In this document: positions 11,075 through 61,376 of the stretch, one piece after another
Numbering within the stretch: the stretch's first letter is position 1
Layout of the letters: every line of letters starts with the position of its first letter
Source: a virus
Lineage: Duplodnaviria; Caudoviricetes
Strand: one strand, 5' to 3'
Virus record (IMG/VR): IMGVR_UViG_3300043432_000485
Coordinates: 1-64,000 of that record
DNA length: 64,000 nt
Notes under the pieces: generated by a model
Seen by the model: only the letters and a program-made list of their open reading frames with translations
The model's database searches: none
What the model was told of the DNA's origin: nothing
Program-made: the position numbers and the translations under genes

Positions 11075-11257
11075 ATGTCCCTATCAGACGCAGACCGAGC
11101 CAGGCAGCTGGCAAGGTTCCGAAACCTACGCGGACGTGGGATCGCGGTGAGTTTCCCCCCACTGGGACCAGTGGTCCAAGCCAGTGACCCACAGGAACTG
11201 CAAGAAGCCACCGACCAGGCTCTGGCTGAAGTGGTGTCGGAAGAACCCGCTAGCTAA
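11075..11257 (+). CDS. Small hypothetical protein
   Basis: GGTGTA motif upstream of ATG 11075. Confidence 0.5.
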   Translation: MSLSDADRARQLARFRNLRGRGIAVSFPPLGPVVQASDPQELQEATDQALAEVVSEEPAS

Positions 11258-11280
11258 TCGTCTTGTGATCCGTGGTGTGC

Positions 11281-11865
11281 ATGGCTTTGCAGCACCGAGT
11301 GGCACAGCGTTTTCAGATCCGGGAGGCCCTTGAGCGCCAGCTCCAAGCATTCAGGGTCACTGACCTACAGAAACTCATGGGGATGGGGCGCAGCTTCGGG
11401 GTGATCTCCGCGTACCGCTCGAACCTGTCCAAGTCCGAGAACCAGCAGCGTCACGGTCAGCTGGTGGCTGATCTGCAGAAGCTCGGTTACCGGAACGTCC
11501 ACCCGATGAAGTCTAGCTGGGAGGACATGGCCACGAAAGTGACCCACAAAGAGAAGAGCCTCTTCGTTCCGGCCATCGACTTTTCCACGTTGCTTGACCT
11601 GGGGACTCAGTATGAGCAAGACGCCGTCCTGTTCAAGGACCCAAGCGGGACCATCGGCGTCTACTTCAAGGACCACACGGCGGTGATGGCCTTCGACAAC
11701 TCGGCCGAGATGGGCGTAGACAAGAGCACCAACCCCAATGAGGGCTACTCCAAGGGGCGCGGTATGTCGTTCGGCTTGCAGCTGGTGGAGGGCCAGAAGT
11801 TCCGTTTCTCGGGTCATCCGATCACGCGTAAGCAGCTCGAAAAAGAGATCTCGGCACACCCATGA
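11281..11865 (+). CDS. DUF3293-like phage protein with RVAQRF N-terminal motif
   Basis: ISAYR..EN..R...L..LG....E.S.FV....G..Y.QDAVL pattern recalled from phage proteins. Confidence 0.6.
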   Translation: MALQHRVAQRFQIREALERQLQAFRVTDLQKLMGMGRSFGVISAYRSNLSKSENQQRHGQLVADLQKLGYRNVHPMKSSWEDMATKVTHKEKSLFVPAIDFSTLLDLGTQYEQDAVLFKDPSGTIGVYFKDHTAVMAFDNSAEMGVDKSTNPNEGYSKGRGMSFGLQLVEGQKFRFSGHPITRKQLEKEISAHP

Positions 11866-12404
11866 ACGTGGTGACCGCTCTGAAGGTAGCGGCCCGGTTT
11901 CTGCGCTCCGATCTGCATCCGCCATTGGGAGATCCCGGCGGAGCGTGCCAGGTCATCAAGCGAATCAAGGACGAAGTGCACAGCCCTGCTCAACAGCGGC
12001 GCCTCATCCAAGAGGTGATGCACGGAGATGACCTGACCAATCAAGAGGCGTTTGAGGTCTATGACGCAGACGTGGAGTCGGGCAACAAGCTGATCCGTAA
12101 GTTTGAGATCGGCTCACATGCTCAGTATCGAATGGACCTAAGAGGGGTCAAGGTCAACGACTTACGGAGGGCATTCATAGCATTCGTGAAGCACTTTGAG
12201 AGGCACAGATCCCTGAAGGATCAGGAGTTTGAGTTCTTGACTGATGCGCTTGCCCGAGGGGTCAAGCTAGAGTTCGAGGACCCACAGACGCACTTGTTTG
12301 TGACCTTCGCGGCTACTACCCCTGGTAGCGTCAAGGTGATCACCACGTATTGGACGAATCGCCCCGGGCACCCAACGGTGCCTCGTGACGGCTGCCCAAT
12401 CTAG
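11862..12404 (+). CDS. Protein with KVAARF motif and DUF4258-like putative RNase domain
   Basis: SHAQYRMDLRGV and C-terminal VKVITTYW. Confidence 0.55.
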   Translation: MNVVTALKVAARFLRSDLHPPLGDPGGACQVIKRIKDEVHSPAQQRRLIQEVMHGDDLTNQEAFEVYDADVESGNKLIRKFEIGSHAQYRMDLRGVKVNDLRRAFIAFVKHFERHRSLKDQEFEFLTDALARGVKLEFEDPQTHLFVTFAATTPGSVKVITTYWTNRPGHPTVPRDGCPI

Positions 12405-21241: not shown

Positions 21242-21868
21242 TCAGTACCCGGACATTGCCATGGAAATCTTCACCAAGCAGTAGGATTTGTCGGATATGA
21301 CTCGGGGGTCGTCTCCAATGGTTGGGAACATCATGGACTTGTGGTCCTTGGGTTCATGGTCTAGCCCGAGCACGTGTCCGAGTTCGTGCGCGCCGATCTG
21401 GATGACCGCCCGATCTGTGAAGTAGTCGTTGGCGGTGAGCTTCATGCGCGTCTCCATGGTCTCGACGTTCACGATGTCATCGGCGCAGGACCCGTAGGTG
21501 GTCAGACCAATTTCTTCTGTCTTCCCATCCGCTTCTAGGGGCAGAGCCACATTGTCGGTAAGAACCGCATAGTTGCACTTTCCGTGCATTGCAAGGTTGT
21601 ATGTGATGGTTGCATACAACACCTCTGTCTTGATGCGCTCGTTCCATAGGTCAATGGATTCGAGCATGAGTCCGATGTTGTGATCGGAGATGTTGGCATC
21701 AATCACAATGTTGACTGGGTACTCTTTGGGGGCGAACTGTGCCTGGTAGTCCCCAGTCATGTATTGCCCGCATGCCGCCTGTAGTTGTGGCCCAATGTAC
21801 GGGTCACCCTCGATGACTCCAGTGCAACCCAAAAGCGACAAACTACAGGCGGCGAGCAGAGCTTTCAT
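21242..21868 (-). CDS. Matrixin/M10-like metalloprotease lipoprotein
   Basis: Lipobox LLGC; HELGHVLGLDH and Met-turn SMMFP. Confidence 0.85.
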   Translation of the reverse strand: MKALLAACSLSLLGCTGVIEGDPYIGPQLQAACGQYMTGDYQAQFAPKEYPVNIVIDANISDHNIGLMLESIDLWNERIKTEVLYATITYNLAMHGKCNYAVLTDNVALPLEADGKTEEIGLTTYGSCADDIVNVETMETRMKLTANDYFTDRAVIQIGAHELGHVLGLDHEPKDHKSMMFPTIGDDPRVISDKSYCLVKISMAMSGY

Positions 21869-22635
21869 GACTTCTCCAGGCTTTCTATATAGATCTCGAT
21901 AGGTGCATTACGAGGCAGCTCACCCGCCTCTACCCGGGCTTTGAGCCCAGCCATGACCTTGCCTAGCTCCAAGCCTTGGGACAGGCCCAGGTGCGCCTTG
22001 AGCGCATCCCCAAGGCCCTTGGGGAGAGCTTGGGGAATCTCAGCCTGCTTTTGAAGCCGCGTGATCCGGCTTCGGAGTTCGTGGGTCAGGCGCATGACCT
22101 TGCGGCGCTGCGCCGGCCGGCTGGTAGTGCAATCCGCCCGAGCCACTGCGAAGACATCGTCCAGGTGTGTGCCCAGTTCCAACGCCAACCGGCGCACCGC
22201 GGAGTCTGACCACTCGGGGTAGTATGCCTCGACCTTACCCAAGTTCTCGATGATGAAGCCAATTTTCGCTTCCTCCTCACCGGTGAACAGCCTGCTCTGT
22301 TTGGCTGCCTGAGAGAAGATCCGAGCGCTCGCGATCTCATGGTTGTGGAAGGCCACTTTCCCGGTCGCGGTCGAGATGGACGAGGGCTTTCCCACATCGT
22401 GGAACAAAGCCGCCCAACGCAAGACTGCGACGGGCAAGGTTTGGACCACCACCAGTTTGGTGTGCATCCACAGATCCTTGTGAGCGTACCCACTGGTTTT
22501 CCCACCAAATCCCACCAAGCCCTGCAGGGCAGGGAACGCCGCACGGAGGATGCCCGATTCCTGCAGGTCTTCCAGCCCCTGATCGGCATCTTTGGCCGTC
22601 AGTATCTGGTCCCAAGCTTTGCGCGACAATGCCAT
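21865..22635 (-). CDS. Headless CCA-enzyme-like protein: RNA-binding body plus HD domain
   Basis: GL..L..SGIL...FP.L, HKDLWMHT, LRWAALFHDVGKP, FHNHE; no DxD nucleotidyltransferase head. Confidence 0.8.
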   Translation of the reverse strand: MALSRKAWDQILTAKDADQGLEDLQESGILRAAFPALQGLVGFGGKTSGYAHKDLWMHTKLVVVQTLPVAVLRWAALFHDVGKPSSISTATGKVAFHNHEIASARIFSQAAKQSRLFTGEEEAKIGFIIENLGKVEAYYPEWSDSAVRRLALELGTHLDDVFAVARADCTTSRPAQRRKVMRLTHELRSRITRLQKQAEIPQALPKGLGDALKAHLGLSQGLELGKVMAGLKARVEAGELPRNAPIEIYIESLEKS

Positions 22636-22671
22636 GCTTGAGTATAACACCCCAGGAGCCCAAAACTCCAG

Positions 22672-23154
22672 CTAAATGTCGTCTCTTAGCTGTTCCCACA
22701 AGGAGCGCTGAGGTGGTTTCTCTGGCGCTTTAGAACGTCGCGGTGACACAGGTGCTCTTGCGACGAACAAATCTGAGGTCACATTCTGGTCCAACCCAAG
22801 GGAGTCGTCCGGTATTTCTCCAAAATCGGTGAGCGCCTCTACAATTTGCCTGGTCACTGGAGAAACGAGCCGCGCCCGAGGCCCTCTGGTGATCTCCACA
22901 TCCATCCCGATCTGTCTGCCAAGATCTCGGACCATTTCGGCTAGCCGATGGCTGGACTCGTGTCCGTTGTAGTGATCCTCAACGTCGATCCATCCATCTC
23001 GCCCCACGCCTCCCCCAATGGCCATTCGGCGTAGATAGTTCAGTACCAGTACTCGGGTGCGGCCGGTACGACGTTGGTCCTGTCCTAAGGTGTACAGCCA
23101 CTCCAAAGCATCCATGGCGCGGCGCTGTGTCGGCGTGAGATAGAACGCGGGCAT
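22672..23154 (-). CDS. Hypothetical protein ending LWEQLRDDI
   Basis: GGTGTA motif upstream. Confidence 0.65.
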   Translation of the reverse strand: MPAFYLTPTQRRAMDALEWLYTLGQDQRRTGRTRVLVLNYLRRMAIGGGVGRDGWIDVEDHYNGHESSHRLAEMVRDLGRQIGMDVEITRGPRARLVSPVTRQIVEALTDFGEIPDDSLGLDQNVTSDLFVARAPVSPRRSKAPEKPPQRSLWEQLRDDI

Positions 23155-23163: not shown

Positions 23164-23520
23164 TTACACCGAACCGTTCTTTTCGAGCGTGTACAGCTCA
23201 TGCTCGGCGGCCCGAATTCGCTCATCGAGCGCCGTCCGCTCCTTCTTGAGCTTCTCCACCTGCTGAGCCTTGAGCAAGAATGCCGGCAACGTGCGGCATG
23301 TCCGCTTCTGTTCCTCCCGGCTGAAGTTGGGGACCCATTGAGTGGTGTACCCACACAGGAACTCGCGCTCCTCCCATTCTTGGCCGTTGCAATGCCGCCT
23401 CACTTTGCGCTTGCTCGTCAGGTCCCAGAACCAGGTTGACTCGATTTCCCTGGTCTCGCGAATGACCTCTCGCTCGCCGCAAGTCGGGCATGCTTCAGTC
23501 TTGAGGTGCTTGAAGTGCAT
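23164..23520 (-). CDS. Zn-ribbon/coiled-coil hypothetical protein
   Basis: CPTC and later Cys/His residues. Confidence 0.6.
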   Translation of the reverse strand: MHFKHLKTEACPTCGEREVIRETREIESTWFWDLTSKRKVRRHCNGQEWEEREFLCGYTTQWVPNFSREEQKRTCRTLPAFLLKAQQVEKLKKERTALDERIRAAEHELYTLEKNGSV

Positions 23521-27825: not shown

Positions 27826-28989
27826 TCACCCGGCGGAGACTCGTTCCTCCACCAGACGTTCCAGCCTCTCCGGTTCACTGAGGAGGCTTGGGTCTTCCAA
27901 CAGCAGCGCCCGCGCGTGTTGGATCACTCGGCCCCGAGCCGCACCCTTGAGGCCATGCAGCTCGAAGATGCGCTCTTGGTTGATCGCTGGTTGCTTCAGG
28001 GCGCCCACGAAAGGTACCTCGAAGCTGGCAGGGTTGGACCACAACACTTCCCGGAGCCGGCCGCGTTCCGCGGCGCTCAAGAAGGATACCGGGGTCTTCA
28101 ACCCCCAGCCCAGCTCGATCAGATCCAGGACCACATGGATGTTGAGTCCAGGCAGCGCTCGACCAACGCCGGTCGCGAAACCTGGTTCGGCGGCCAGCAT
28201 GTCTTGGATGACGGGAGCCAGCCCGAAGTCCTTGAGCAGGACAACGCTGTGGCGCGGGTTAGGCGCTTCCAGGATGTCCTCCACCAGGATCTTGCGTACT
28301 GCATCCCACGGCATTTGAGCCAGCTTGTGGGCGTTCCTGCGAATCGCCGCGGCGGTGTCCGCGTGCGGCTTCAGGCCGTACTTGGCTTCGAACTTGATTG
28401 CCCGGATCATCCGCGTAGGGTCATCCGAGAAGGTCTTGTCCGGGTCCACCGGGGTGACCAGCTCGCGATTGGTGAGGTGCTGCACCCCGACTCCCAGCAA
28501 ATCGAGCACGGGCGCCTCAGCGGGGCCGTTTCCCAGGTCCGCCAGACGCCACAGCAGCGTGTTGCAGGTGAATTCGCGCCGCAGCAAATCCTCTTCGATG
28601 GTGGCCGGTTCGACCATGTGGGGCTTGTAGCCCTTGCCCTCGGGAGCGCCATAGCTCTCTCGGCGAGCATTCGCGATCTCCAGGACTTCGCCCTTCAAGT
28701 CATGGCCGTCCAGAACCCACGAATCGGCCACTGTCACGATTGCCACCCCGTATTGGTTGGTCACGAGACTGGCGCGAGCGGGAATCCTGGTCAGCAACTT
28801 CTTGGCGAACCATGCTGAATCCTTGTGGGGACCGAGCCCGATTGAGTCCACTACCAGGTCGAAGTCCTTTGGGTCCAGGCCCATCAGGTGGTTCCGGACT
28901 GCCCCGCCAACTACGTACGAGTGCTCGGCCGCGCCAATTTCCTTAGCGAAACCAACCAAGAACTTCAGTAGGGATTCAACTTTCGACAT
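27826..28989 (-). CDS. cca: CCA-adding/poly(A) polymerase class II nucleotidyltransferase without HD domain
   Basis: YVVGGAVRN..PKDFDLVV (DxD), EIANARRE, EEDLLRREFTCN, DDPTRMIRAIKF. Confidence 0.88.
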   Translation of the reverse strand: MSKVESLLKFLVGFAKEIGAAEHSYVVGGAVRNHLMGLDPKDFDLVVDSIGLGPHKDSAWFAKKLLTRIPARASLVTNQYGVAIVTVADSWVLDGHDLKGEVLEIANARRESYGAPEGKGYKPHMVEPATIEEDLLRREFTCNTLLWRLADLGNGPAEAPVLDLLGVGVQHLTNRELVTPVDPDKTFSDDPTRMIRAIKFEAKYGLKPHADTAAAIRRNAHKLAQMPWDAVRKILVEDILEAPNPRHSVVLLKDFGLAPVIQDMLAAEPGFATGVGRALPGLNIHVVLDLIELGWGLKTPVSFLSAAERGRLREVLWSNPASFEVPFVGALKQPAINQERIFELHGLKGAARGRVIQHARALLLEDPSLLSEPERLERLVEERVSAG

Positions 28990-29547: not shown

Positions 29548-29813
29548 CAAGAGACGAAAACATGAAAACACAAGAAAAGCTATGTGCGTTCGGGTGTGGC
29601 AAGGAAGTCCACAACGGACGCAGGCTGTGCAAGGAACACCTCGAACACCAAAAGAACAAGATGGCTGCTTACCGGGCCAAACGTAAGAAATTGATGCTAT
29701 GCTCAAGATGCCCCAACGCTGCTCGGATTCTGCCGGACGGCTCGGCCAGCACTCTGTGTGATCAGTGCAGGGCTCATGTCAGGACACTGGAAGCACAGGG
29801 CGCGGAAGCTTGA
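29544..29813 (+). CDS. Cys-rich zinc-binding protein
   Basis: CAFGC, LCKEH, CSRC, LCDQC. Confidence 0.65.
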   Translation: MTRDENMKTQEKLCAFGCGKEVHNGRRLCKEHLEHQKNKMAAYRAKRKKLMLCSRCPNAARILPDGSASTLCDQCRAHVRTLEAQGAEA

Positions 29814-29814
29814 C

Positions 29815-30309
29815 ATGAAAATCCAGCAAGTCAAAGACGGCCATTGGGAGCGGGCCGAGAAATTATGGCAGCTGCTAGACGACATTGATACCCTCGACGA
29901 TGCGTGCCGCGCCGATGATCGACAGTTCCGGGATCGCGTGCGCTCCGTTCAACAGAAACGCTTTGGAATCTTGACCTCTGACGGGTACGAACTCTACGTG
30001 CCGGATGAACCCATGACCCCTACAAACCAAGCCGCTAACCAAGAAGCCACAACCATCGACGAGAAAATGCTCTTGCTGTCGATGGTGCAGGCAGTCGTCC
30101 GCCAACCGGAGAAGGTAGCCATCTCCACAACCCGAGGACGGGACGTCTCAGTCCTGACCATCTCTGTCGATCCTCAGGACATCAGTCACGTGATCGGCAA
30201 AGAGCACCGTACCATTCAAGCTTTGACCCATCTGATCGCCAAGTCTGCGGCGATGGTTGGCCGCCGCGTGCTGGTCAACCTGGACATACAAAACGACCCT
30301 GAGGTTTAG
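29815..30309 (+). CDS. KhpA-like KH-domain protein with N-terminal extension
   Basis: VRQPEKV..LTISVDPQDISHVIGKEHRTIQAL. Confidence 0.75.
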   Translation: MKIQQVKDGHWERAEKLWQLLDDIDTLDDACRADDRQFRDRVRSVQQKRFGILTSDGYELYVPDEPMTPTNQAANQEATTIDEKMLLLSMVQAVVRQPEKVAISTTRGRDVSVLTISVDPQDISHVIGKEHRTIQALTHLIAKSAAMVGRRVLVNLDIQNDPEV

Positions 30310-30312
30310 ACC

Positions 30313-31020
30313 GTGGCCCGCGTTCCAAAAAGTAGGGCGTTAGAGAGAGTATGCCACTGCGGAAAGGCCTTCACTGCTGATGCCACTAGGGTATCCAGAA
30401 AGGACTTCTATTGCTGCAGTTTGGGGTGCCGAAAAACTGCTCCTTTACCAGCAGAGCTTCTGCTAACGGAATATCTATGTCCTCGTTGCAGTAGGCCATC
30501 CTTGGGCTCCAACTTCGAGTGGTACCGAGACGTAAGGTACAGCGCGGGCTGGAGAAGGTTTGGGTACTGCTATCCTTGTGGGATCATGCGGAGCCAAGTG
30601 TACTATTCTGAACACACAGAAGAAGCTAAAGCTCAGCACACCAAATGGCGAAGGTCTCATTTAGGTAGTCAGGATGATGCCAGTCTGCGTTTTTGGTTTG
30701 CAAGGCAGCTCGGTGGTTACCGGAAGAGAGCCAGAGACGCTGGTTTCCCATTCGATCTCAACATTGAACATTTGAGCAACCTCTATCTGATTCAAAACGG
30801 GGAATGTTACTATACAAAAGAGAAATTGGTGTGGAATAACCCCGAGATCCGCCCCAACTCGATGTCAGTAGATCGTCGAATACCCGAGCTTGGGTATGTA
30901 GTAGGCAATGTCGTACTTTGTACTTTCAGAACCAATACCATGAAGGGTGCTCTATCGGAGAGTGCCTTCTACGAGGAATGTGCCCTCATCTTAGAGAAGA
31001 AGCAGGAGGCCGGACGATGA
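30313..31020 (+). CDS. His-Me finger homing endonuclease
   Basis: CYYT..SVDR..PELGYVVGNVVLC...N; lower GC. Confidence 0.75.
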   Translation: MARVPKSRALERVCHCGKAFTADATRVSRKDFYCCSLGCRKTAPLPAELLLTEYLCPRCSRPSLGSNFEWYRDVRYSAGWRRFGYCYPCGIMRSQVYYSEHTEEAKAQHTKWRRSHLGSQDDASLRFWFARQLGGYRKRARDAGFPFDLNIEHLSNLYLIQNGECYYTKEKLVWNNPEIRPNSMSVDRRIPELGYVVGNVVLCTFRTNTMKGALSESAFYEECALILEKKQEAGR

Positions 31021-32696: not shown

Positions 32697-32770
32697 CACG
32701 CACCTCAAAAGTTGCTAACCCATACCAGAGGCTCAACACAAATGGGTAAGTCATCGGTGTAGTAAAGGCA

Positions 32771-35871: not shown

Positions 35872-38070
35872 TTACTGGCAGGCCTTGGCCCAGCCGATGC
35901 CCTTGTCCCAGACGTTGATGGTGCCGGCGCTGCAGCCGAACTTGATTTCACCGGTGTCACTGCCGCGTTTGCACGCGAGGATTTGGCTGCAGTTGCAGCC
36001 GCCCTTCTGCAGCACTGAGTCACCAACGCTGTTTGGCTTGAGGGACTGAGTTGGAACAGGGCCGGACAGGTTGGTACCCGGGCAGAGGTCCACGTCGTCA
36101 CTCACTCCATCCAGGTCGCTGTCGCTGATGTAGAAGAGCGCCGTATTCTTGAGACCGTTTACGATGAGGGATGTTCCGGCTCCGGTGGAGCGGCACATCG
36201 TGTCTGGGGTGCGCCAAACGATGCAGGCTCCTGGGGCGGGGAGATCCGCCTTCTTGACCTTGACCGCTGTATTGGGGCAAGCACCTTGTGAGTCGATGGT
36301 TGCACCCGGGACGTCGTTGATGCAGAAGTCGCGGTTTGCGTACGGGATCGTGACCGACTTGGTGACACCCGGTGGCAGGGTTGCATTGATAGCGATCGCT
36401 GGCTTGGTGCTGCCCCCGTTACCATCGGACGCGGTCACGGTGATGACCTGAGAACCACCCACGGGTCCGGTACCAGGCGGGAACGTCACTCCGAAGTTTG
36501 AGCCGCCGGGCGTACTGATCGTGGCGGTGGTGGAGCCATCGGGGTTCGGAGTGGTGGTGGAGTTGCCGCCTGAGGTCTGGATGGGGATGCCCTGCACCAG
36601 TGAGCCGTAGCTCAGGACGCGATTGAGAGCATTGTCGACCACGAACAACCGTCCGTAGGTGGCATCCCATGTAACGCTGTTGGGGAACAACATTGATGCG
36701 GCACTTGCCGGCTGGTCCAGCCAGGTGAAGGTGCCGTCCTGGGTGTTTTGACTCACGTGACCACAACCCAGAATCTGATGAACAGGATCTGATCCTGGAT
36801 CAACGGCGCCACCGGTCAAACTCGGGTATCCGAGCACATTGGACGGCGGGAGCCCATTCTGGGTCTTGGTTTGTGCATCTCCGGAGATGTCATAGGAGAC
36901 GACTCGGCAGTTGTAGAAGTCCGCAACGAACAGCCGGCGACCAGCATTGTCCACCGCAGCGGCGGCTGGGGAGTTCAAGTATGGGCCACCACCGTACGTG
37001 ACGGGCAGGGCGTCATAGTTGGGCTGTCCAATGACCCAAGTGGAGGGTGCACCGTTCGCAACCACGGAGGACAGGTTCGCACCCGCCGAGTAACGCCATG
37101 CGCGTACGCCATTTTGGGTCGGAACGTAAAGCGCACCTTCCGTGGGATCCCACGCCGGTTTGCCCGGGAAGTTGATGCCGCACGCGTTGGGGGTGTGCGT
37201 GCCGACTGGGCCTGAACACGGGGCGTCGACTCCGCCTTCAGACACGAGACTCTGTTGTCCGAGGACTTTCACCGCTGCCATGTTGTTCGAAATGCCCGAA
37301 GACAAGTCGAAGAACATCACGCGATTGCCCTCAGCATCGGACACGATGAGGGTCTTGGAGTTCGCCTCGAATGCGAGCCCGAAGGGGGCTAGCGAACAAG
37401 CATTGATGCCAGAGGTGGCAGATCCACTGCAGAAGCGGTTCGGCTCCGTGGTGGTGAAGTCCGACTGACCCAACACGAACACCGAGGTCTCACCGTTGGT
37501 GTTCGTGTCCCCGATGTTGAAAAACAACACGCGGTGCTGCCAGTAGTCACTGACAGCCAGGTACTTCGCAGTACCGAGCTTGATCACCACTACACTGGTT
37601 GGGGAGTACAGGTTGCAAGCGTTAGCCGGACCGGGCCACGGCACATTCGGATCCGTGCTGTTGACGCAACCAACCGCTGGGTTCTGGAAGTTGCGTTCCA
37701 CGCTGGTATACGTGCCTTGGCCGAGCACGAACAGGGTGGGGGCATTGGTTGAGCCGTTGCGGACATCCTTGGCTAGGACCCGCTGGCCCCAGGACTCCAC
37801 GATGTACAGGATGCCGGTCTCAGGGTCGAAGTCCGCATCATTGGGGGCCGTCACCGTCTGGTCACTCGATGGCTGAAGCACCTCGAATGCCTCGATGTCA
37901 GTCAGGGGAACCCCTACCTGTTTCACCGGATGGTTGAGGTCCGGCTGGCCAATGACCCCACCTGCAGGCATCCCGTTGCTCAGAATGAGCTGGGCGGTTG
38001 CACCTGCTGCGATGGCCAACATTGCGCACGTGAACGCAATTGTTGCCGTTTTTGTGAATGGCTTCTTCAT
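35872..38070 (-). CDS. Secreted NHL-repeat beta-propeller protein with TSP3-like motif
   Basis: Signal peptide; repeated VLGQ..F, LAVSDY..HRVLFF, VADFYNCRV; DSDLDGVSDDVDLCP. Confidence 0.8.
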   Translation of the reverse strand: MKKPFTKTATIAFTCAMLAIAAGATAQLILSNGMPAGGVIGQPDLNHPVKQVGVPLTDIEAFEVLQPSSDQTVTAPNDADFDPETGILYIVESWGQRVLAKDVRNGSTNAPTLFVLGQGTYTSVERNFQNPAVGCVNSTDPNVPWPGPANACNLYSPTSVVVIKLGTAKYLAVSDYWQHRVLFFNIGDTNTNGETSVFVLGQSDFTTTEPNRFCSGSATSGINACSLAPFGLAFEANSKTLIVSDAEGNRVMFFDLSSGISNNMAAVKVLGQQSLVSEGGVDAPCSGPVGTHTPNACGINFPGKPAWDPTEGALYVPTQNGVRAWRYSAGANLSSVVANGAPSTWVIGQPNYDALPVTYGGGPYLNSPAAAAVDNAGRRLFVADFYNCRVVSYDISGDAQTKTQNGLPPSNVLGYPSLTGGAVDPGSDPVHQILGCGHVSQNTQDGTFTWLDQPASAASMLFPNSVTWDATYGRLFVVDNALNRVLSYGSLVQGIPIQTSGGNSTTTPNPDGSTTATISTPGGSNFGVTFPPGTGPVGGSQVITVTASDGNGGSTKPAIAINATLPPGVTKSVTIPYANRDFCINDVPGATIDSQGACPNTAVKVKKADLPAPGACIVWRTPDTMCRSTGAGTSLIVNGLKNTALFYISDSDLDGVSDDVDLCPGTNLSGPVPTQSLKPNSVGDSVLQKGGCNCSQILACKRGSDTGEIKFGCSAGTINVWDKGIGWAKACQ

Positions 38071-38214
38071 ATGGATTTGCGGCTTCACCCGATGGGTACG
38101 GCAGCCGTTCCGGTGAATGGTTACGAGCATCTAACTACCTGGCCGTTTGGGTTTGGTCAATGGCCTATTCGGCTATTTTGACCCGCCCTGGGGTTTTTCG
38201 GTGTAATGGTGTTC

Positions 38215-38841
38215 ATGCTGATCGATGTGTCGAGAAGACCCGTGCGCCTGATCTTTGAGGAGTGCCCAACCATCATTGTGGTGCGCTCCATGCGAGTTAC
38301 AGGACAGGCTGACGGGCTGCTTCACCAGGACATCTCGTCCATGAACGTGTCTCGTTCTCCAGCGCGAACCAACACACTGGCTCCAAAGGTAGCGTTGCAC
38401 CAGAAGGGGTACGAGTACATCGAGACCATTCTCCCCGGTTCAGAGCAACCCCAGGAGCTTGGCTATCTCGAAAGTGAGGTAGCCCGTACCAGAGAAGCAA
38501 TCAGAAGGGGAGAGGTTAGGATCGCTCCCCCGCGCCCGCGGGTAGCACTGAGCAACGAGCCCTACTATGTGATCTCCGGGCATCAGGATCAGTTCGCAAA
38601 GCAGCTTGGGGTATGGAGGATCAACTTCGTCTCTGGGGCCGGCCCTAAGAGTCAGCGACTGTTGACCCTGTTGGACGAAACGCACGGCACGGTACTGTTC
38701 ACATGCCAGGTCCCTCCGGTATCCACCACAGATGGGATCTTCAAGATCAACACTCCACTGGAGCGCTACATTCGCCGCCCAGATGCAGCCCCTGGGTTGT
38801 GGAAGATGCTGCGGGAAGAGGGCGACGATGAAGTCGACTGA
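38215..38841 (+). CDS. Hypothetical protein
   Basis: GGTGTA motif 11 nt before ATG 38215. Confidence 0.65.
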   Translation: MLIDVSRRPVRLIFEECPTIIVVRSMRVTGQADGLLHQDISSMNVSRSPARTNTLAPKVALHQKGYEYIETILPGSEQPQELGYLESEVARTREAIRRGEVRIAPPRPRVALSNEPYYVISGHQDQFAKQLGVWRINFVSGAGPKSQRLLTLLDETHGTVLFTCQVPPVSTTDGIFKINTPLERYIRRPDAAPGLWKMLREEGDDEVD

Positions 38842-43240: not shown

Positions 43241-43444
43241 ATGTGGCAATTCATGTTCCCATCTAAAGCTCCCCTGGTGGAGGCTGTGGGGCGTCAGTAT
43301 CGACGCAAGCAGGACACCATGACCTAGGAGCTGGTGGCTATCGACACGACGGCTGACACGGTCAAGCTTCGCGGCCCCGGCTACGGCAAGGGCCACATGA
43401 CGATCAGCCGCACCGAGTTTCAAAAGGATTGGGTAGCAGCATGA
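43241..43444 (+). CDS. Small hypothetical protein interrupted by in-frame TAG (43325-43327)
   Basis: GGTGTA motif upstream; MWQF...DTMT*ELVAID...DWVAA then TGA overlapping coaD ATG. Confidence 0.65.
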
Positions 43445-44216: not shown

Positions 44217-44234
44217 GTCGGTGTAGTCTAGGGT

Positions 44235-44759: not shown

Positions 44760-45218
44760 CTAGCTGTGGTCACGATTGTTCCGCCCACAAAAAGTTGGAG
44801 ATTGGGAGTCGCAGTTGGGGCACACGAAACGGAGATTGTCAATCCGATCATCATTGCGTTCACCGTTAATGTGGTCTAAACGCAGGACAAGAGGTTTCCC
44901 TCTCCACTCTGGTCCCATGCCACATTCTGCGCAATTGTAGGGAATCAGACTATGAGTCAGGATCACGCGTTTCAGAGTCTTACGGGCATAGGATCCGTTG
45001 GGAACAAGAGCCGACTCCGGAGTAGCCAGTGGACGTCGAGTCACCGCTTTCCAGTGTTCTGTACTCAACCCTAGCTTCTGTACCGTGTTTCTTACTAGCG
45101 CATAGCTCGTGCCAACTCTGGCTATCCCCAGATATTGGATGGCTCTCAGAGTGGATGTGGTACGAGAGACCGCTTCTATGATTTCTTGTTCAGTAGGTGT
45201 ACGAGATTTTTTACCCAT
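44760..45218 (-). CDS. HNH endonuclease
   Basis: CAECG..LRLDHING..DNLRFVCPNCDSQ. Confidence 0.88.
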   Translation of the reverse strand: MGKKSRTPTEQEIIEAVSRTTSTLRAIQYLGIARVGTSYALVRNTVQKLGLSTEHWKAVTRRPLATPESALVPNGSYARKTLKRVILTHSLIPYNCAECGMGPEWRGKPLVLRLDHINGERNDDRIDNLRFVCPNCDSQSPTFCGRNNRDHS

Positions 45219-45238
45219 ATGTAGGTTAGGACTTAGAA

Positions 45239-45313
45239 TGGCGGTCCCGAGGTGATTCGAACACCCCTACTGCAATTTTAGAGGTTGCTGCCTGGCCACT
45301 AGGCTACGGGACC
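45239..45313 (-). tRNA. Amber suppressor tRNA, anticodon CUA (tRNA-Trp-like scaffold)
   Basis: Full cloverleaf GGTCCCG/CGGGACC, D stem GCCT/AGGC, anticodon loop CT-CTA-AA, TTCGAAT T loop, G73 and encoded CCA. Confidence 0.93.
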
Positions 45314-45426
45314 ATGTCCTACATCTACACCATTTTATGGATTCTGTCGCGCTCTTTTGTCTGGAGTTTTTGACCGCCCAAGTGTCTTAGGGGTAAGACT
45401 TCCCTCTGAACCAAAGGACACTGAAC

Positions 45427-46299
45427 ATGGGTAAGACAGCAATCAAGGCTCCTCGCGGCAAGACCAGCTTCCGGCTCGATCCGAACGACCCGCGCCTGCG
45501 TCTCATCGGGCACGACACCAACCACAAGGATGGCGAGCACATCTGCTACCAGGAGCGCGCCCACCTTCCGGTGGATGAGGAGTTCGCGCAGTACATGGCG
45601 GTCCATGGCTGCACCAGCGTCCTCATCGTCTTCCGGGACGGGGACTTCCTGGACATCGTGGTCGGCCGCCGCCGTCTCAAGGCTGCACGCCGCGCCAACG
45701 AGATCCGAGCTGAGCGCGGGCTGGACCCGATCCGCATCGAAGTCCAGGTCTTCGACGGTACGCCCCTCGAAGTTCTGGCCCTCATGATCACCGAGAACTC
45801 GCGGCGTCTCGAACCGCACGCCATTCAGATGGCGCTCGATCTCAACCGCTTCCTCCGCCTGGGGGCGACTCTTACGGAGGCAGCGTTCACGATCGGCAAG
45901 TCCGAGCAGACGGTCACCAACTACATCAGCCTTCTGCGCCTCTCGACTCCGGTGCAGGAAGCGGTTGCCCGCGGTGACCTCGCGGTGTCGGCGGCCATCG
46001 AACTGCTGAGCCTCACACGCGACGAGCAGACGGTCGAGCTGGTGAGCTTGCTGGCAAAGGGCGAGCGCCCGACGGCCGCCAACGTCAACGCGGCGGTCCG
46101 TACCAAGAAGTCCGGTGAGGCGGTTTCCCCCGCGCCCAAGACGCGCACTCTCCGCAAGCTGATCGCAGCGGAGGGCGCCGAGGAAGTGCTCGGGGAGAAC
46201 GGGATCGCGCTCATCCGCTTCGTGCTCGGCGAGCTGCCGGCGCGCAACATCAAGGGCCTGACCGAGCTGCTCCGCAAGGTGGAGAGCAAGAAGGCCTGA
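45427..46299 (+). CDS. ParB/Spo0J-like protein
   Basis: VVGRRRLKAA, ITEN..R, HTH region; high GC. Confidence 0.8.
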   Translation: MGKTAIKAPRGKTSFRLDPNDPRLRLIGHDTNHKDGEHICYQERAHLPVDEEFAQYMAVHGCTSVLIVFRDGDFLDIVVGRRRLKAARRANEIRAERGLDPIRIEVQVFDGTPLEVLALMITENSRRLEPHAIQMALDLNRFLRLGATLTEAAFTIGKSEQTVTNYISLLRLSTPVQEAVARGDLAVSAAIELLSLTRDEQTVELVSLLAKGERPTAANVNAAVRTKKSGEAVSPAPKTRTLRKLIAAEGAEEVLGENGIALIRFVLGELPARNIKGLTELLRKVESKKA

Positions 46300-48872: not shown

Positions 48873-49052
48873 ATGGAATCCATCAAACCCGCCCCATCAC
48901 CTGATTCCGTGCGCCATGCGATGGTCCTGCACCGTCTGGCGAAGCACCCTTTCGAGAGAAGGATTCCAGGCCGCCTCGTACAACAAGACGGCCTGGATAT
49001 CCACATGGTATGCGGGGTATGCTCAGAAGTGATCTATGTGCTGAGCAACTAG
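48873..49052 (+). CDS. Small hypothetical protein with CxxC
   Basis: GGTGTA motif and GGGG SD upstream; not in supplied ORF track. Confidence 0.5.
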   Translation: MESIKPAPSPDSVRHAMVLHRLAKHPFERRIPGRLVQQDGLDIHMVCGVCSEVIYVLSN

Positions 49053-49366
49053 CGGGAGAGGGCCAGGGGTAGAGAGCTAGTGATCCTCCTCCCCTCGGGT
49101 CCGAGCGCGATTGCAGTCAGCTCGTTGTTGCGATCCGGCTCCCTGAATCTGGACACCTGGATGTACCGGCCTTCAGCTTTCTTGGCCAGTGCCTCCAAGG
49201 CATCCTCATTGGGAGCCACCAGTAGCGCTAGGGTGTTGGACTCTTGGTGCCATTGCTTGGCTACCTATCCATGTTCGAAAATGAACTCGGTTATGGCATG
49301 TATTGATTGTACTGCCTGTTGTGCATAGCTTAGATCAGACCTTACAATCACGTATAGTTTCGAGAT
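49049..49366 (-). CDS. PTH2-like protein with in-frame TAG (49265-49267) and no canonical start next to it
   Basis: ISKLYVIVRSDLSYAQQAVQSIHA...EHG*VAKQW..SNTLALL..FREPD.NNELTAIALGP..TSSLPLAL. Confidence 0.8.
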
Positions 49367-49952
49367 ACGTGATCGCCGTTCGCATTGCTGTGGTGTTGTC
49401 ATGAAAATATCCTAGTCCTTGGTTACAGGGGTTACACAGAAGTCCACGAACCCTGCCTGAGACATGGTCGTGATCTACATCGAATCTATTTGGGGTGCCC
49501 CTACATATTGCACATACCCCACCTTGAAAAGCTAACATGTCATTGTATTCATTTAGGGTTATGCCATGTGTTTTCAATAGGTAGCCATTTTTCCTACGTT
49601 CTTGGTTCTTAGCTACCCAGGCTTGCCATACGATTTTTCTCTTCTCTGGATTGGAATTTCTCCAGGCAGTATTTTTAGCCTTTTGGCACGCTTTGCAACA
49701 GCTTTGGAGGCCTCCTTCACCCGACTTGCTGAGGTGATACTCAGTGACTGGTTTAGTTTCCATACAGGTAGAGCAACGTTTGGAGCCGGTTGTTCTAACC
49801 GGGGCGCCATTCTCGGCTCTGGACTTTCTCCATTCCTTAGTGCGTTCCCTCTGACAAAGCTTACAGTAGGCTCCAACCCCCTGGCTACCCCTGGAAGCTT
49901 TGTGAAAGGAATCTATGGGCAACTCTTCTTGACATCTCGAACATTTCTTCAT
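49335..49952 (-). CDS. Endonuclease VII-family homing endonuclease
   Basis: Tandem CxxC zinc modules; CAIC..DVDHDH..RVRGLLC..CN; low GC. Confidence 0.88.
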   Translation of the reverse strand: MKKCSRCQEELPIDSFHKASRGSQGVGAYCKLCQRERTKEWRKSRAENGAPVRTTGSKRCSTCMETKPVTEYHLSKSGEGGLQSCCKACQKAKNTAWRNSNPEKRKIVWQAWVAKNQERRKNGYLLKTHGITLNEYNDMLAFQGGVCAICRGTPNRFDVDHDHVSGRVRGLLCNPCNQGLGYFHDNTTAMRTAITYLETIRDCKV

Positions 49953-49992
49953 ACAGCAGCAGAGCAACAAGAATAGTATTGAGTCAACAGGC

Positions 49993-50568
49993 TTAGAGGC
50001 CATCTGGACCTCCAAAGAGCTTCTGACAGATGGCACGGCCCCGCCGGTCAATCTGTTTCCACTTGATCTTGAATGACGTGCTCTCTGGGCCTCCAAACAT
50101 GGAGGCGTTTGCGTGGATTTCCGCTAGGCCTGAGATCAACAACGTGGGTGCTTCCGGAAGAGCGCAGAACGCATCTATCCCATCAGCTTTCAAGGTGTGG
50201 ATCTTCATGTCGAGCCGCATCAGATTGGCGGAGGCCTGGGTTCCACCTACGCCAAGCCACGTACGGTACGAGACCTCAGCGTGCTCCGGGAACTTGGTTA
50301 TGCCATCTGACTGGCAGTAAGGCTTCCCACAGTCATGATAGGTCGTGTACTCCTCGATGATGTCGATTGGAGCCAACGCGCTTAACAGCTGCCCTCGATA
50401 CTGTTTGATCCAACTGGGCAGTACCCACCAACCCTCTAGATGCCCTCCTTGCAAATAGGAGATCAACTGGAGGGTGTGCCAACGGACTGACAATCCATGG
50501 TCAAACACTGACTGACCTTTGGTTTGTTGACAGTCCTGCATGTCTTGGATGAGGTCAATCTACGTCAT
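49993..50568 (-). CDS. HD-domain protein; proposed start has TAG as codon 3 (50560-50562)
   Basis: YHDCGKP, FP.HA..S; GAGGA SD 5 nt before ATG-ACG-TAG-ATT, in frame with ATG 50541. Confidence 0.75.
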
Positions 50569-51210: not shown

Positions 51211-51566
51211 TCGGCAGCCTCCGTGACCTGGGCCACTACCGGCGCCGCTGCATTCAACCACTGCTCGATAGCTTCGCTGGAAAGTGCCAGCCCTCGCTGA
51301 TCAGCCATGGCTTTCATCCCACGGTTGATCCAGTAGAGGACATTGCGATCGTACTTGGGCTCCACCACATGATGGGGGATTCCGCGCAACATCGCGTAGC
51401 ACAACAACAGGCATCGGGTGTCGCGGCCGTAGCTGCGCTTGTCGTCCCAATGCTGCCAGCGGTCCATACCGCTAGACCCATGGATCAGCTTGCGGATCTC
51501 GCGACTCTCCGCTTCACGTTGACGTAACTCTGCTTTCAATTCCGGGAACTTAGACTTCTTGCTCAT
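51207..51566 (-). CDS. Conserved phage hypothetical protein, first gene of the TAG operon
   Basis: AGGAG SD inside hairpin; R.LLL.YAMLRG.P...VE motif. Confidence 0.75.
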   Translation of the reverse strand: MSKKSKFPELKAELRQREAESREIRKLIHGSSGMDRWQHWDDKRSYGRDTRCLLLCYAMLRGIPHHVVEPKYDRNVLYWINRGMKAMADQRGLALSSEAIEQWLNAAAPVVAQVTEAAE

Positions 51567-51676
51567 GACAATTTCTCCTGTGACTGGGTGTTGACTCGTT
51601 GAAGACAACACGTCACAGGAGGGCCACGCGCGCGAGCCCAACTAGCAATCTACCAGAGATGTCCGTGAATCTGCAT
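51563..51676 (-). promoter_or_regulatory. Leader peptide/attenuator: MQIHGHLW*IASWARARGPPVTCC...EKLS with SD-sequestering hairpin
   Basis: TAG at 51650-51652; hairpin 51575-51621 (CTCCTGTGAC/GTCACAGGAG plus GTGTTG/CAACAC); read-through TGA overlaps next ATG. Confidence 0.8.
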
Positions 51677-57446: not shown

Positions 57447-57494
57447 GACCTAGAACCTTGACAAGAGCTTCCGGATTCGGTGTAGTAGGAGGGT

Positions 57495-58991: not shown

Positions 58992-59432
58992 ATGCCGCGC
59001 AAGACAATCGCCCAATGTGAAGAACAGATCCGTAAGCTCCAGAAGGACAACGAGTTCTTATCCAAACGTGTGAACCACCTCTCCAGCTCCGCCCCGCAGA
59101 AGGAAATCGAAGCCCTGAAGCAGAGCGTGGAGATCCTCGGAAATGAGATCGTGAAGCGCAACGCATTCATCCTGGAGGTGGAGGCTAAGCTGGCTGCCGC
59201 CACGGGGACCGCTCAGGAAGAGGAGCCCCATCATATCCGAGTCCGACTGCACAAAGACGTGGTTGCGATTGCAGAACGTCTGCAGAAGACGCTGAGCATC
59301 TACACCCCCGGTGACGTTGTGGCCCACGCGCTCAACGCACTGGAGGAGCGTGAGAAGTCCACCTTGCACCACCTGAAGAATCAGGTACGCTATCTGTGGT
59401 CACAAGTTGTCGAGATCACACGTTCACGCTGA
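58992..59432 (+). CDS. Coiled-coil protein, possible ribbon-helix-helix C-terminus
   Basis: Heptad pattern, then IRVRLHKD. Confidence 0.6.
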   Translation: MPRKTIAQCEEQIRKLQKDNEFLSKRVNHLSSSAPQKEIEALKQSVEILGNEIVKRNAFILEVEAKLAAATGTAQEEEPHHIRVRLHKDVVAIAERLQKTLSIYTPGDVVAHALNALEEREKSTLHHLKNQVRYLWSQVVEITRSR

Positions 59433-59443
59433 AGGAGTCTCAA

Positions 59444-59698
59444 ATGAAGACGCTGTCTCTGATCATGGTTCTGGGACTGGTTGGCTGTGCCTCCACTGAG
59501 GTGACGTCACGCCCCATCTCTTACCCGTGGCTGTGTGAGCAGGATCACGTTGCTCATCAATGCACGCGGCTCGGCTACGAAGTCAACACCGACGAACCCG
59601 CGTTGGTGATGGCTCAGGCCCGAGACGTCTGCCCTCAGGGAGCCAAGTCCTTCACGAGCAACGAGCACACGCACAAGACCTTGATCGTCTGCAAGTAG
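59444..59698 (+). CDS. Small lipoprotein
   Basis: AAGGAG SD; lipobox LVGC. Confidence 0.7.
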   Translation: MKTLSLIMVLGLVGCASTEVTSRPISYPWLCEQDHVAHQCTRLGYEVNTDEPALVMAQARDVCPQGAKSFTSNEHTHKTLIVCK

Positions 59699-59701
59699 CT
59701 C

Positions 59702-60523
59702 ATGACCACCATCCTTGTCACGAAGCGGTCTGTGTGGGAGCAGTACAACCGGGAACGGGAGCTGTTCGGCAACATCAGCAAGGCTTCGTTGAAGAGGATG
59801 CATGACAGCCATCTGCGCCATCGAAGGATGGTGGACGAGGTTGCAGGGGAGCTGAAGAGACTCAAGATCAAGTACTGGCTGGTGGAGGGGGCTGACATCT
59901 CCTTCAAGACACAACCCGGGGACGAAGTCGTGTGCGTGGGAGGGGATGGCACCGTGCTATCCTCCAGCCACAACTGCGGCCCCGGGGTGGATCTCATGGC
60001 CATCAACAGTGATCCGTTGTTGAGCAAGGGCCGGCTCTGCAACGCTATCTTCGCAGACGTCCGGCACATTCTCGACAAGAAGCGCAAAGTGACTCTCATA
60101 CCTCGGATGCAGGTAGAGGTCGATGGTCAGGTAGTCAGCAAACGAGTTCTCAATGAGGCCCTGTTCAGTCATACCTGCCCAGCAGCGATGACCCGATTTT
60201 CGGAGGGGAAGACTCGTTATGCGTGCTCGGGGATGTGGGTTGGCACTGGAGCGGGATCAACCGGCGCCATCAAATCGGCTGGCGGTGAGGTGCTTCCCAT
60301 TGGATCCAAGCTACTCCAGGCAGTGATTCGAGAGCCCTTCGATCACCCGGACGGCAAAACCATCTCTACGGTTGACCACAAGTTCAAGTTCACTAGCAAG
60401 ACAGCGGACGCTACCCTCTACCTGGACGGCCCCTTCCTTCGGGTCCCAGTGGGGTTTGATCAGACCATGCGATTCACTCAGTCTCCGGAGCCACTCCGGA
60501 TGATTGGGCCAGAGCCGCAATGA
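59702..60523 (+). CDS. nadK: NAD+ kinase
   Basis: VGGDGT, LNE, GTGAGSTG...SAGG. Confidence 0.88.
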   Translation: MTTILVTKRSVWEQYNRERELFGNISKASLKRMHDSHLRHRRMVDEVAGELKRLKIKYWLVEGADISFKTQPGDEVVCVGGDGTVLSSSHNCGPGVDLMAINSDPLLSKGRLCNAIFADVRHILDKKRKVTLIPRMQVEVDGQVVSKRVLNEALFSHTCPAAMTRFSEGKTRYACSGMWVGTGAGSTGAIKSAGGEVLPIGSKLLQAVIREPFDHPDGKTISTVDHKFKFTSKTADATLYLDGPFLRVPVGFDQTMRFTQSPEPLRMIGPEPQ

Positions 60524-60530: not shown

Positions 60531-61376
60531 ATGGGGATCGTTTATCTGATACGTAACCGTGAAAATGGGATGGGGTATGTAGGTCAGACCTCAAGTACCT
60601 TGGAGAAACGGTGGCGCCAGCACAAACTTCCTGGATCGGAGTGTCGGGCGATATCTGAAGCTATCCGGGACCACGGGACAGATGCTTTCGAGTGCAGCGT
60701 ATTGGAGCAAGTGAATGACCACGTTCAGCTGAAAGAACGGGAGGCCCATTGGGTAGAGGCTCTCGGCACCCTAGCCCCTAAAGGGTATAACCTGATGCTC
60801 GGATCAGTGCATTCCCCGGCGTCCCGCCGCAAGGCTTCCCAATCAATGCGTAGAGCATTGGCTGAAAAGGGCGCAACTGGGGCGCCAAGAGGGCAGTCCA
60901 CGCTAGATGCTCAGGATGTACGGGATATCTTTCGTAGATTTGATATTGGAGAGACTCAGAAGAGCGTCGCGCAGAGCTATGGGGTGGATAAATCCACGAT
61001 CAGCCACATTCTCCGAGGCACCACTTGGAGCCATCTCGGGCTGAAGCGGAAGAAACCCATCGTCAGGGCACTCACAGCGCTCCAACTGGCGGCAATAAGC
61101 AAGCTTTACAACCAGGGCCTGACCTACTCTCAGATCTCCAAAGAAGTGGGGCGCCCTCTTGGTACCATCAAAAAGGCATTGAAAAGGGCTAGGCGGGGCG
61201 GGATCACAACGCACAAACCAGTTCCACAATGGTGGGTTCAGATCAAGGCACTGTATGAAAGAGGCCTGACATACGCTCAGGTAGGAGAGAAGCTAGGTAA
61301 GTCCGAGCCAGCCGTGGCCCAAGCAGCAAAGCGGCTCGGGGTCGTGAGTCGCCCACCCGGGACTCGGTGTAAGTGA
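60531..61376 (+). CDS. GIY-YIG homing endonuclease with multiple HTH units
   Basis: IVYLIRN..GYVGQT..KRW..H, GYNL. Confidence 0.85.
   Translation: MGIVYLIRNRENGMGYVGQTSSTLEKRWRQHKLPGSECRAISEAIRDHGTDAFECSVLEQVNDHVQLKEREAHWVEALGTLAPKGYNLMLGSVHSPASRRKASQSMRRALAEKGATGAPRGQSTLDAQDVRDIFRRFDIGETQKSVAQSYGVDKSTISHILRGTTWSHLGLKRKKPIVRALTALQLAAISKLYNQGLTYSQISKEVGRPLGTIKKALKRARRGGITTHKPVPQWWVQIKALYERGLTYAQVGEKLGKSEPAVAQAAKRLGVVSRPPGTRCK

Follow-up and report, generated by a model that had tools for sequence, protein, structure and literature searches.

A suppressor-type tRNA(CUA) of a huge phage as a possible key to in-frame UAG codons in two tRNA-related genes

What use is an amber-suppressor tRNA to a phage that keeps the standard genetic code? 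The question is raised by a stretch of 64,000 nucleotides (nt), hereafter the window, which makes up positions 1 to 64,000 of the IMG/VR virus record IMGVR_UViG_3300043432_000485 (Duplodnaviria; Caudoviricetes) and encodes a tRNA with the anticodon CUA, here called tRNA(CUA). Suppressor tRNAs of standard-code jumbo phages have so far been an unexplained annotation; the authors of the phage XacN1 genome, who reported two CUA tRNAs, read through 18 TAG-terminated genes and found no target (PMC5852040). We find that in-frame TAG codons recur in two genes that accompany such tRNAs, one for a PTH2-family peptidyl-tRNA hydrolase and one for an HD-domain protein, and that tRNA(CUA) probably reads UAG as a key to these two genes rather than as part of a genome-wide change of code. 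Judging from sequence comparison, the tRNA and the two proteins form a module conserved across many jumbo and huge phages.

We began with the tRNA itself, which a preliminary description of the locus had presented as an intact suppressor tRNA on a Trp-like scaffold and had proposed to check with tRNA-finding software. ARAGORN finds a single tRNA in the window, 75 nt long with the anticodon CTA, and the Rfam tRNA family (RF00005) matches it at 51.3 bits against a gathering score of 29 (E = 4e-8); it is the sole tRNA of the 203,362-bp record. Read by eye, the sequence is that of a canonical elongator tRNA, with a perfect acceptor stem of 7 bp (G1-C72 to G7-C66), U8 and A9, a D stem of 4 bp and GG in the D loop, the anticodon loop C-U-CUA-A-A, a variable loop of 5 nt, TTCGAAT in the T arm, G73 and an encoded CCA; the only non-standard pair is C31 opposite A39, at the innermost position of the anticodon stem. 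The 75-nt cloverleaf, its encoded CCA and its C31-A39 mismatch had all been described correctly, within a span (45239-45331, strand unstated) that comprises the tRNA and an upstream motif on the minus strand. The refuting case proposed there, CCA in place of CTA, does not apply: a contig from an independent wetland study of 2017 (run X4) spans 45037-45505 with zero differences, including an identical tRNA gene, so CTA is not an assembly slip. These calls rest on the covariance model and ARAGORN, not on folding energy, the minimum-free-energy fold (z = -1.5) being unremarkable, as is usual for tRNAs. ARAGORN's label 'Pyl' is given merely for the CTA anticodon. A tRNA-Pyl has a 6-bp anticodon stem, a 3-nt variable loop, a small D loop without GG and a pylS partner; we rejected this identity on the five-position, mismatched anticodon stem, the 5-nt variable loop and the GG of the D loop.

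Is TAG then a sense codon throughout this genome? The record, classed as a provirus by IMG/VR and about 43% complete by CheckV, is a fragment of a huge phage, its nearest GenBank records by PTH2 protein being uncultured huge phages of 460-735 kb; Logan contigs place the phage in freshwater, sediment and wetland metagenomes, and among the runs in which the locus occurs there was no RNA run. We examined its code by stop-to-stop open reading frame (ORF) statistics, by codon-score windows flanking every stop and by a weighted-interval gene caller run under four codes. Code 11 gave the best score, with 228 genes at a density of 0.861, and reading TAG as sense gave 0.863 at a lower score. The 228 genes end in TGA (142), TAG (45) or TAA (41), and the codon-score windows show no excess of TAG among frames that are coding on both sides of a stop (TAG 12, TAA 9, TGA 12). 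Genome-wide recoding to code 15 is rejected on these grounds: there is no gain in density or score, TAG is not depleted as a stop, and two-sided coding is not in excess. Candidate joins across single TAGs were rejected as well, both in the window (9054-9608, 11017-11925, 21865-23154, 29758-31020, 35872-38400 and 59396-60523) and elsewhere in the genome (81275-83080, 140797-147285 and 192140-192646); we treat these as adjacent genes, since Pfam and PHROG matches never span the TAG and ClpX (81275-83080, minus strand, beyond the window) terminates at its TAG with normal length. The gene that follows ClpX lies in the same frame, 10 codons past the TAG, and read-through would fuse both.

The PTH2 gene, 3.7 kb from the tRNA, has the marks of a frame that is coding across its TAG. 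The preliminary description had pointed to an in-frame TAG in the context EHG-TAG-VAK, and it is real: the frame matches PF01981 (E = 1.7e-8) in one stretch that runs over the TAG (residues 18-108 of the frame extended upstream to 49411), and 535 homologues, up to 69% identical, align over the TAG without a gap. In a diverged strain from an independent study (run X5) the flanking codons have changed from GTA to GTG (49262) and from GGA to GGG (49268) with the TAG kept between them; both changes are synonymous while the TAG is retained, a pattern that marks a translated frame and not a pseudogene. At the position aligned with the TAG, 36 related loci have E (19), D (6), Q (6) or, once each, A, H, P, R and T, and never W, and the TAG of the window occupies a variable surface position inside the domain.

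To place this TAG in context we gathered related loci in IMG/VR, using the gene beside PTH2 as query (52 loci, on contigs of up to 480 kb), and compared them all against all with TAG read as X, filtering by best frame. In 14 distinct loci the PTH2 gene opens alike, with GGAG, a spacer of 5-8 nt, ATG, one or two codons, TAG, a codon ATT, GTT or ATC, and AAA, from which the frame runs on to GAT-AAG-CTN-TAT, the mark of the conserved first PTH2 strand D-K-L-Y-V-I-T-R. No ATG, GTG or conserved TTG lies between TAG and PTH2 core in these 14 relatives, and with no canonical start between them the core can be reached only past the TAG.

A leader of the same kind precedes the partner gene. Its protein (49996-50541) belongs to no Pfam family, and the PDB has no entry that matches it in sequence; an AlphaFold2 model built on 35 homologues (mean predicted local distance difference test score 93.5) adopts an HD-domain fold. 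The top fold match is to residues 256-448 of the Aquifex CC-adding tRNA nucleotidyltransferase (Z 14.4; root-mean-square deviation 2.8 Å over 153 residues; 20% identity), and others are the HD domain of the GlyRS beta subunit (Z 11.1) and PhnZ (Z 10.0). On this structural model the partner is predicted to have an HD domain like that of bacterial tRNA nucleotidyltransferases. Among its distinct homologues, 43 of 46 have a leader of Met, 1-8 codons and an in-frame TAG, the TAG standing 4-13 codons before the conserved Met. Counting the one internal case, in phage GAP32, a TAG falls in the HD or PTH2-HD frame at 44 of the 46 loci, two being without; seven of the 43 leader-TAG homologues are PTH2-HD fusions, in which the fused frame opens in the same way. 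The leader stop is never TAA or TGA, though many of the relatives are A+T-rich (binomial p = 1e-17 against the background share of TAG). The leader ATG-ACG-TAG of the window is kept in L007, L008 and L009; GAGGA lies 6-7 nt before its ATG, and no Shine-Dalgarno sequence precedes the second ATG. Homologues that lack the TAG start upstream and translate the same short helix, which is why we regard this helix as part of the HD-like protein.

Gene order and the tRNA itself are conserved as well. L007, L008 and L011, which have the closest PTH2 proteins, share the gene order of the window and carry a CUA tRNA at the same place, and ARAGORN locates a CUA tRNA within 10 kb in about 38 of the 52 loci, often two in tandem. 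A pattern search of ten contigs without an ARAGORN CUA call disclosed, in five (L067, L068, L070, L071 and L073, near position 1500 of each), atypical CUA tRNA-like genes that ARAGORN and Rfam miss; their acceptor stem has 7 bp, their connector 8 nt and their D stem 5 bp, and between L067 and L073 the D stem differs by two compensatory pairs; a sixth contig has a normal CUA tRNA 40 kb away. Two CUA tRNAs, mostly in tandem, occur in L021, L022, L024, L026, L027, L030, L053, L060 and L064, typically one with A73, which we take to be Lys-like after E. coli tRNA-Lys, and one with G73 on an unrelated scaffold; such pairs could supply two residues at UAG or redundancy across hosts. Around the module L013, L018-L020, L027, L046, L053, L057, L060 and L062 also show a phage transfer-messenger RNA (tmRNA), arrays of 3-5 Thr tRNAs and an Arg(CCU) tRNA, and the present 203-kb fragment is without tmRNA, Thr tRNA array and Arg(CCU) tRNA. 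Beside the PTH2 gene of L010 stands a tRNA (10558-10631) that ARAGORN calls Ser(ACT), its enlarged loop also containing CTA.

Two scans bear on how specific the arrangement is. A blind scan of 832 kb of relatives for a Shine-Dalgarno sequence, an ATG, 1-8 codons and a stop followed by at least 90 open codons returned TAG in 37 cases, TGA in 12 and TAA in 7. When TAG alone was sought and a Shine-Dalgarno sequence tested before each candidate ATG, 38 of 42 cases proved to be the PTH2 or the HD-like gene. The present genome has no general excess of leader TAGs (leader-stop frames: TAG 6, TGA 7), so that the proposed lock is specific to the module.

The same pattern extends to cultured phages, the HD-like protein finding 29 jumbo-phage records in GenBank by tblastn. 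XacN1, with its two CUA tRNAs (PMC5852040), encodes an HD-PTH2 fusion (ORF364); a short way before its annotated start, the frame of this fusion opens with MK-TAG. RsoM2USA has the leader MKS-TAG, with no CUA tRNA called by ARAGORN in the 16.5-kb locus searched; pT24 has MK-TAG on a PTH2-HD fusion and an annotated tRNA-Sup 2.6 kb upstream; GAP32 has its internal TAG in the HD-like gene and an annotated Sup-tRNA 2.3 kb away; and ME3 has a CUA tRNA and an HD frame without TAG. The GAP32 gene (L066; NC_019401, 290461-291027) is annotated as three ORFs, GAP32_398, 398A and 399, an artefact of the internal TAG.

Where, then, does tRNA(CUA) come from, and what might it insert? The 43 distinct CUA tRNAs of the lineage have almost nothing in common but the loop YU-CUA-AA, which is present in 40 of them on any scaffold, those with A73 included; position 73 is G in 17, A in 21, C in 2 and U in 3, and the pair 1-72 is G-C, C-G or U-A. 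Their pair 31-39 is never G-C and is mismatched in 24, as against 47 of 284 other tRNAs of the same loci (Fisher p = 1e-7), and this weakness across the CUA tRNAs makes C31-A39 a trait of the class. A weak 31-39 pair recalls efficient suppressors in the extended-anticodon idea. Since the loop is common to nearly all scaffolds it says nothing on origin, and the one-base likeness of CT-CTA-AA to the Trp loop, on which the preliminary description had leaned, is not diagnostic. The Trp-like scaffold itself was not upheld: the lineage's Trp tRNAs have A1-U72 in 5 of 7 cases, the window tRNA has the G73 of bacterial-type Trp tRNAs but G1-C72, and its identity to the Trp tRNAs of the lineage (maximum 51%, mean 43%) is among the lowest of all isotypes. 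Within the lineage's tRNA set it has no close relative, the best match being a Met tRNA at 69%.

A scan of one genome per species over 185,579 species, with nucleotides 4-24 of the tRNA as pattern (21 nt, two free positions), returned five carriers, the only cellular tRNAs with an exact match to the 5' half: four tRNA-Cys(GCA), from Bacteroidota, Gemmatimonadota, Chlorobiota and Kapabacteria, and one tRNA-Arg. When the tRNA is aligned with the tRNA-Cys(GCA) of Chlorobiota and Kapabacteria, no difference appears in nucleotides 1-26, in the 3' strand of the acceptor stem or in the T loop; the anticodon arm, variable loop and T stem differ, and position 73 is U in the Cys tRNAs and G here. U73 and the GCA anticodon are the main determinants for CysRS. 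With a Cys acceptor stem and D arm and without U73 and GCA, the tRNA has a Cys-derived body of the kind found in the Fibrobacterota-Chlorobiota-Bacteroidota (FCB) group, yet by known rules would be no acceptor of Cys. Such a body may also hint at a host in the Bacteroidota/Chlorobiota group. Neither the exact tRNA pattern, sought in IMG/VR, nor ParB used as a query gave a match, blastn with the tRNA found none in E. coli genomes or in the phages of GenBank, and no GlxRS, Trp/TyrRS, CysRS or PylS was found in the 203-kb record.

GlnRS identity elements include G73, U35, G2-C71 and G10, and the presence of G73 and U35 makes Gln plausible. Gln is our best guess for the inserted residue, tentatively held, with Lys, Cys, Trp and others sharing the remaining probability and Trp unlikely. 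Of the earlier proposal that the residue is Trp or Gln, the second half stands as plausible and the first does not; the PTH2 column never holds W, and the sequence DTMT-TAG-ELVAID that had been offered in its support comes from a small frame (43241-43444) with no family match and no homologue in 70 related loci. The residue is unreadable from alignments because every TAG is at a variable or N-terminal position. The free exchange of scaffolds, together with the unconstrained positions of the TAGs, suggests that the residue hardly matters.

Upstream of the tRNA lies GGTGTAGATG, with four exact copies in the window, whose core GGTGTA (45326-45331) ends 12 nt before the tRNA 5' end. The wider motif reads tc-GGTGTA-(G/A). 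Genome-wide there are 119 copies of GGTGTA, and 34 of them (29%) stand 0-40 nt upstream of a same-strand gene start, as against 3.8% for permuted 6-mers; half of these (17 of 34) sit 8-11 nt from the start codon, with a peak at 9-10 nt and often a Shine-Dalgarno sequence between. Examples in the window are 3587-3592, 23165-23170, 32756-32761, 44220-44225, 57479-57484 and 61366-61371. That one copy precedes the tRNA gene, which is untranslated, argues for a transcription rather than a translation signal; the motif probably serves as promoter for one transcription class of the phage, in which leaders are very short. The motif had been taken to mean that the tRNA has its own promoter: its link to gene starts is confirmed, and a promoter of the tRNA's own is plausible from the sequence but unproven.

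We propose that this giant freshwater phage, with its standard code, encodes a functional elongator tRNA that reads UAG. Ribosomes that start at the Shine-Dalgarno-led Met would end at the UAG unless the phage tRNA, presumably charged by a host synthetase, inserts a residue, and full-length PTH2 and HD-domain protein would be made only where the suppressor is present, matured and charged and competes with release factor 1. The body of the tRNA would have been acquired as a tRNA-Cys from the Bacteroidota/Chlorobiota group, and CUA would then have replaced its anticodon and G its discriminator U, a pair of changes that should abolish Cys identity and favour GlnRS. The interior position of the PTH2 TAG in the window can be explained as well. 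In relatives the HD-like and PTH2 genes abut or overlap with no endonuclease between them; here an Endonuclease VII-type gene intervenes, its 3' end overlapping the PTH2 5' end in another frame, and this homing endonuclease has probably replaced the ancestral 5' end, so that the leader was lost and a TAG now lies inside the domain. The 3' ends of tRNAs are a plausible site of action for both enzymes, and a CCA-adding enzyme is encoded by the phage as well. By analogy with prfB one may go further, speculatively and with a good deal of doubt, and see in the early UAG a sensor of the ratio of charged suppressor to release factor 1, a homeostat that sets the output of both tRNA 3'-end enzymes. Such a module would supply clean-up capacity in proportion to read-through, or would feed back on the suppressor; the identity of the residue would be irrelevant to it, and the body could therefore be swapped freely among Cys-, Lys- and Gln-like scaffolds.

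Several observations weigh against tRNA(CUA) as a key to these genes. The main objection is cost: TAG ends a fifth of the phage's genes, and an efficient suppressor would lengthen that share of the phage proteins along with many proteins of the host, so that suppression has to be weak or timed. PTH2 has no TAG in the closest relatives, L007, L008 and L009, which makes the PTH2 TAG of the window young; L030, L061 and phage ME3 lack a TAG in the HD frame; and one contig, 94% complete, has a TAG leader and no CUA tRNA by pattern search. The nine bases of the window's leader ATG-ACG-TAG also encode, in another frame, the conserved C-terminal end of the gene upstream; by itself this case shows little, the comparison of homologues being decisive, and for the window's HD-like gene termination followed by re-initiation at the downstream ATG is conceivable. 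All of the support is computational, and the record is only about 43% complete.

Re-initiation belongs to a wider alternative, in which the UAGs are the true stops of minigenes and the tRNA is a decoy or spare against host tRNA-targeting nucleases, or cargo of the neighbouring HNH gene. Minigenes of two to four codons cause peptidyl-tRNA drop-off that is relieved by Pth, as with the lambda bar minigenes; the HD-like gene has a canonical ATG 6-13 codons after the TAG, an HNH gene lies directly beside the tRNA in the window but not in L008, and the CUA scaffolds are freely replaced. A minigene, however, does not call for a stop that is always TAG and always in frame, nor does it explain the 14 relatives without a start codon between TAG and PTH2 core, the TAGs inside a domain in GAP32 and in this window, or the loop YU-CUA-AA as the sole invariant of otherwise diverse CUA tRNAs, and we judge it unlikely. 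Simple decay, with the tRNA a non-functional remnant crippled by C31-A39 and the PTH2 TAG a plain nonsense mutation, can point to the one anticodon-stem mismatch, a modest folding z-score and a single PTH2 TAG not found in the nearest relatives; yet the other stems are intact and the CCA and T loop canonical, a weak 31-39 pair is the rule in the CUA class, the tRNA gene is identical in an independent sample, another strain shows synonymous-only change around a retained PTH2 TAG, and the module has been kept over dozens of lineages, so that this account is hardly credible.

It might also be asked whether the phage has been caught at an early stage of code 15, with a general suppressor that inserts Gln or Trp at any UAG and TAGs accumulating at tolerant sites. 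Phage suppressor tRNAs are strongly tied to recoding (preprint 10.1101/2021.08.26.457843), a link that favours this account, as do the variable surface column of the PTH2 TAG and its absence from the nearest relatives. Against it stand the code tests, in which TAG as sense brings no gain and TAG ends 45 of 228 genes; the balance of leader-stop frames in the genome, where TAG is not in excess; and the confinement of in-frame TAGs to two genes over 46 lineages of widely different G+C, which together leave early recoding quite unlikely. A suppressor that acts on the PTH2 and HD-domain genes is the explanation that we prefer.

The features of the locus are collected in Table 1. Other genes of the window encode PhoH, an SbcD-type exonuclease, a CCA-adding-type nucleotidyltransferase, ParB, a cytidylyltransferase and a nucleoside deoxyribosyltransferase. 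The HNH gene is missing from the syntenic gap in L008. In another run of the sample a contig has 26 nt deleted inside the gene, at 44883, so that it may be decaying in part of the population. A short leader frame farther along, preceded by a promoter-like site TTGACA-N17-TATATT, has its TAG, and its peptide on both sides of the TAG, kept in L008, L009 and L011 and is a possible further target of tRNA(CUA). Outside the window, ATG-TAG-ATG stands directly before two large genes (genome positions 140677-140685 and 114251-114259, both minus strand); these sites are possibly further amber-sensitive starts, or variants of the promoter motif.

Table 1. Coordinates of features in the window
Feature	Position	Strand	Basis and remarks
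tRNA, anticodon CUA, amber-suppressor type	45239-45313	minus	ARAGORN, Rfam, sequence reading, identical independent contig
Promoter-like motif GGTGTAGATG	45322-45331	minus	10-mer, 8 nt before tRNA 5' end
PTH2-family peptidyl-tRNA hydrolase	49052-49402	minus	Pfam PF01981; in-frame TAG 49265-49267 (codon 46 of 117)
HD-domain gene	49993-50568	minus	Frame opens ATG-ACG-TAG, TAG 50560-50562; six codons before conserved Met at 50541
Endonuclease VII-type homing endonuclease	49335-50096	minus	Pfam Endonuclease_7, E 1.1e-22; between HD-like and PTH2 genes
HNH homing endonuclease	44760-45218	minus	phrog_10822, E 7.5e-36; starts 20 nt downstream of tRNA
Short leader frame	51563-51676	minus	Sequence: M-Q-I-H-G-H-L-W-TAG-I-A-S-...-R-G-P-P-...; TAG 51650-51652; TGA overlaps next ATG
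tRNA nucleotidyltransferase (CCA-adding-type)	27826-28989	minus	PHROG, E 2.5e-28; Pfam PolyA_pol, E 1.6e-13

Our search of the literature turned up no account of a gene-specific amber gate in jumbo phages with the standard code. If our reading is right, a stop codon and a private tRNA would together lock the translation of particular genes; this would be a third use for suppressor tRNAs of phages, besides genome-wide recoding and codon supply, and one that cultured phages of Xanthomonas, Ralstonia, Cronobacter and Tenacibaculum open to direct testing. There are practical consequences too: gene callers mis-start or fragment the genes of the module, as the three ORFs of GAP32 illustrate, tRNA tools overlook a class of atypical CUA tRNAs, and genetic-code expansion can draw on natural CUA tRNAs with a variety of scaffolds.

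Set beside known systems, the module resembles several and coincides with none. E. coli Su7 (supU) is an amber suppressor derived from tRNA-Trp and charged mostly with Gln; the window tRNA shares its CUA anticodon and G73 and differs in a body that is not Trp-like, with G1-C72 instead of A1-U72. The tRNA-Cys(GCA) of Chlorobiota, Kapabacteria and Bacteroidota are identical to it in nucleotides 1-26, 3' acceptor strand and T loop, whereas the window tRNA has CUA, G73 and another anticodon stem, variable loop and T stem. The gene for release factor 2, prfB, is autoregulated through an early in-frame UGA that is passed by a +1 frameshift and senses its own product; there as here an early in-frame stop would make the synthesis of a translation factor depend on how that stop is read, the difference being that in the phage the stop would be passed in frame, by a dedicated tRNA. 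Among phages, the annotated Sup-tRNAs of GAP32, ME3 and pT24 are the same kind of tRNA in the same phage group, and so are those of XacN1, which also has a PTH and a CCA-adding enzyme and whose ORF364 is matched by the window's HD-like protein; the window tRNA has a scaffold unrelated to that of XacN1, with no blastn match. The code 15 phages (crAss-like phages, Lak megaphages and other recoded gut phages; Borges et al., 10.1101/2021.08.26.457843; PMC9523058) likewise override a host stop with a phage CUA tRNA, presumably host-charged, and their decoding too has been proposed to time the translation of particular phage genes. They have hundreds of TAGs in late and structural genes, low coding density under the standard code and TAG as a rare stop, whereas the phage described here keeps the standard code and, with its relatives, has its TAGs in two tRNA-related genes, mostly at codons 2-9.

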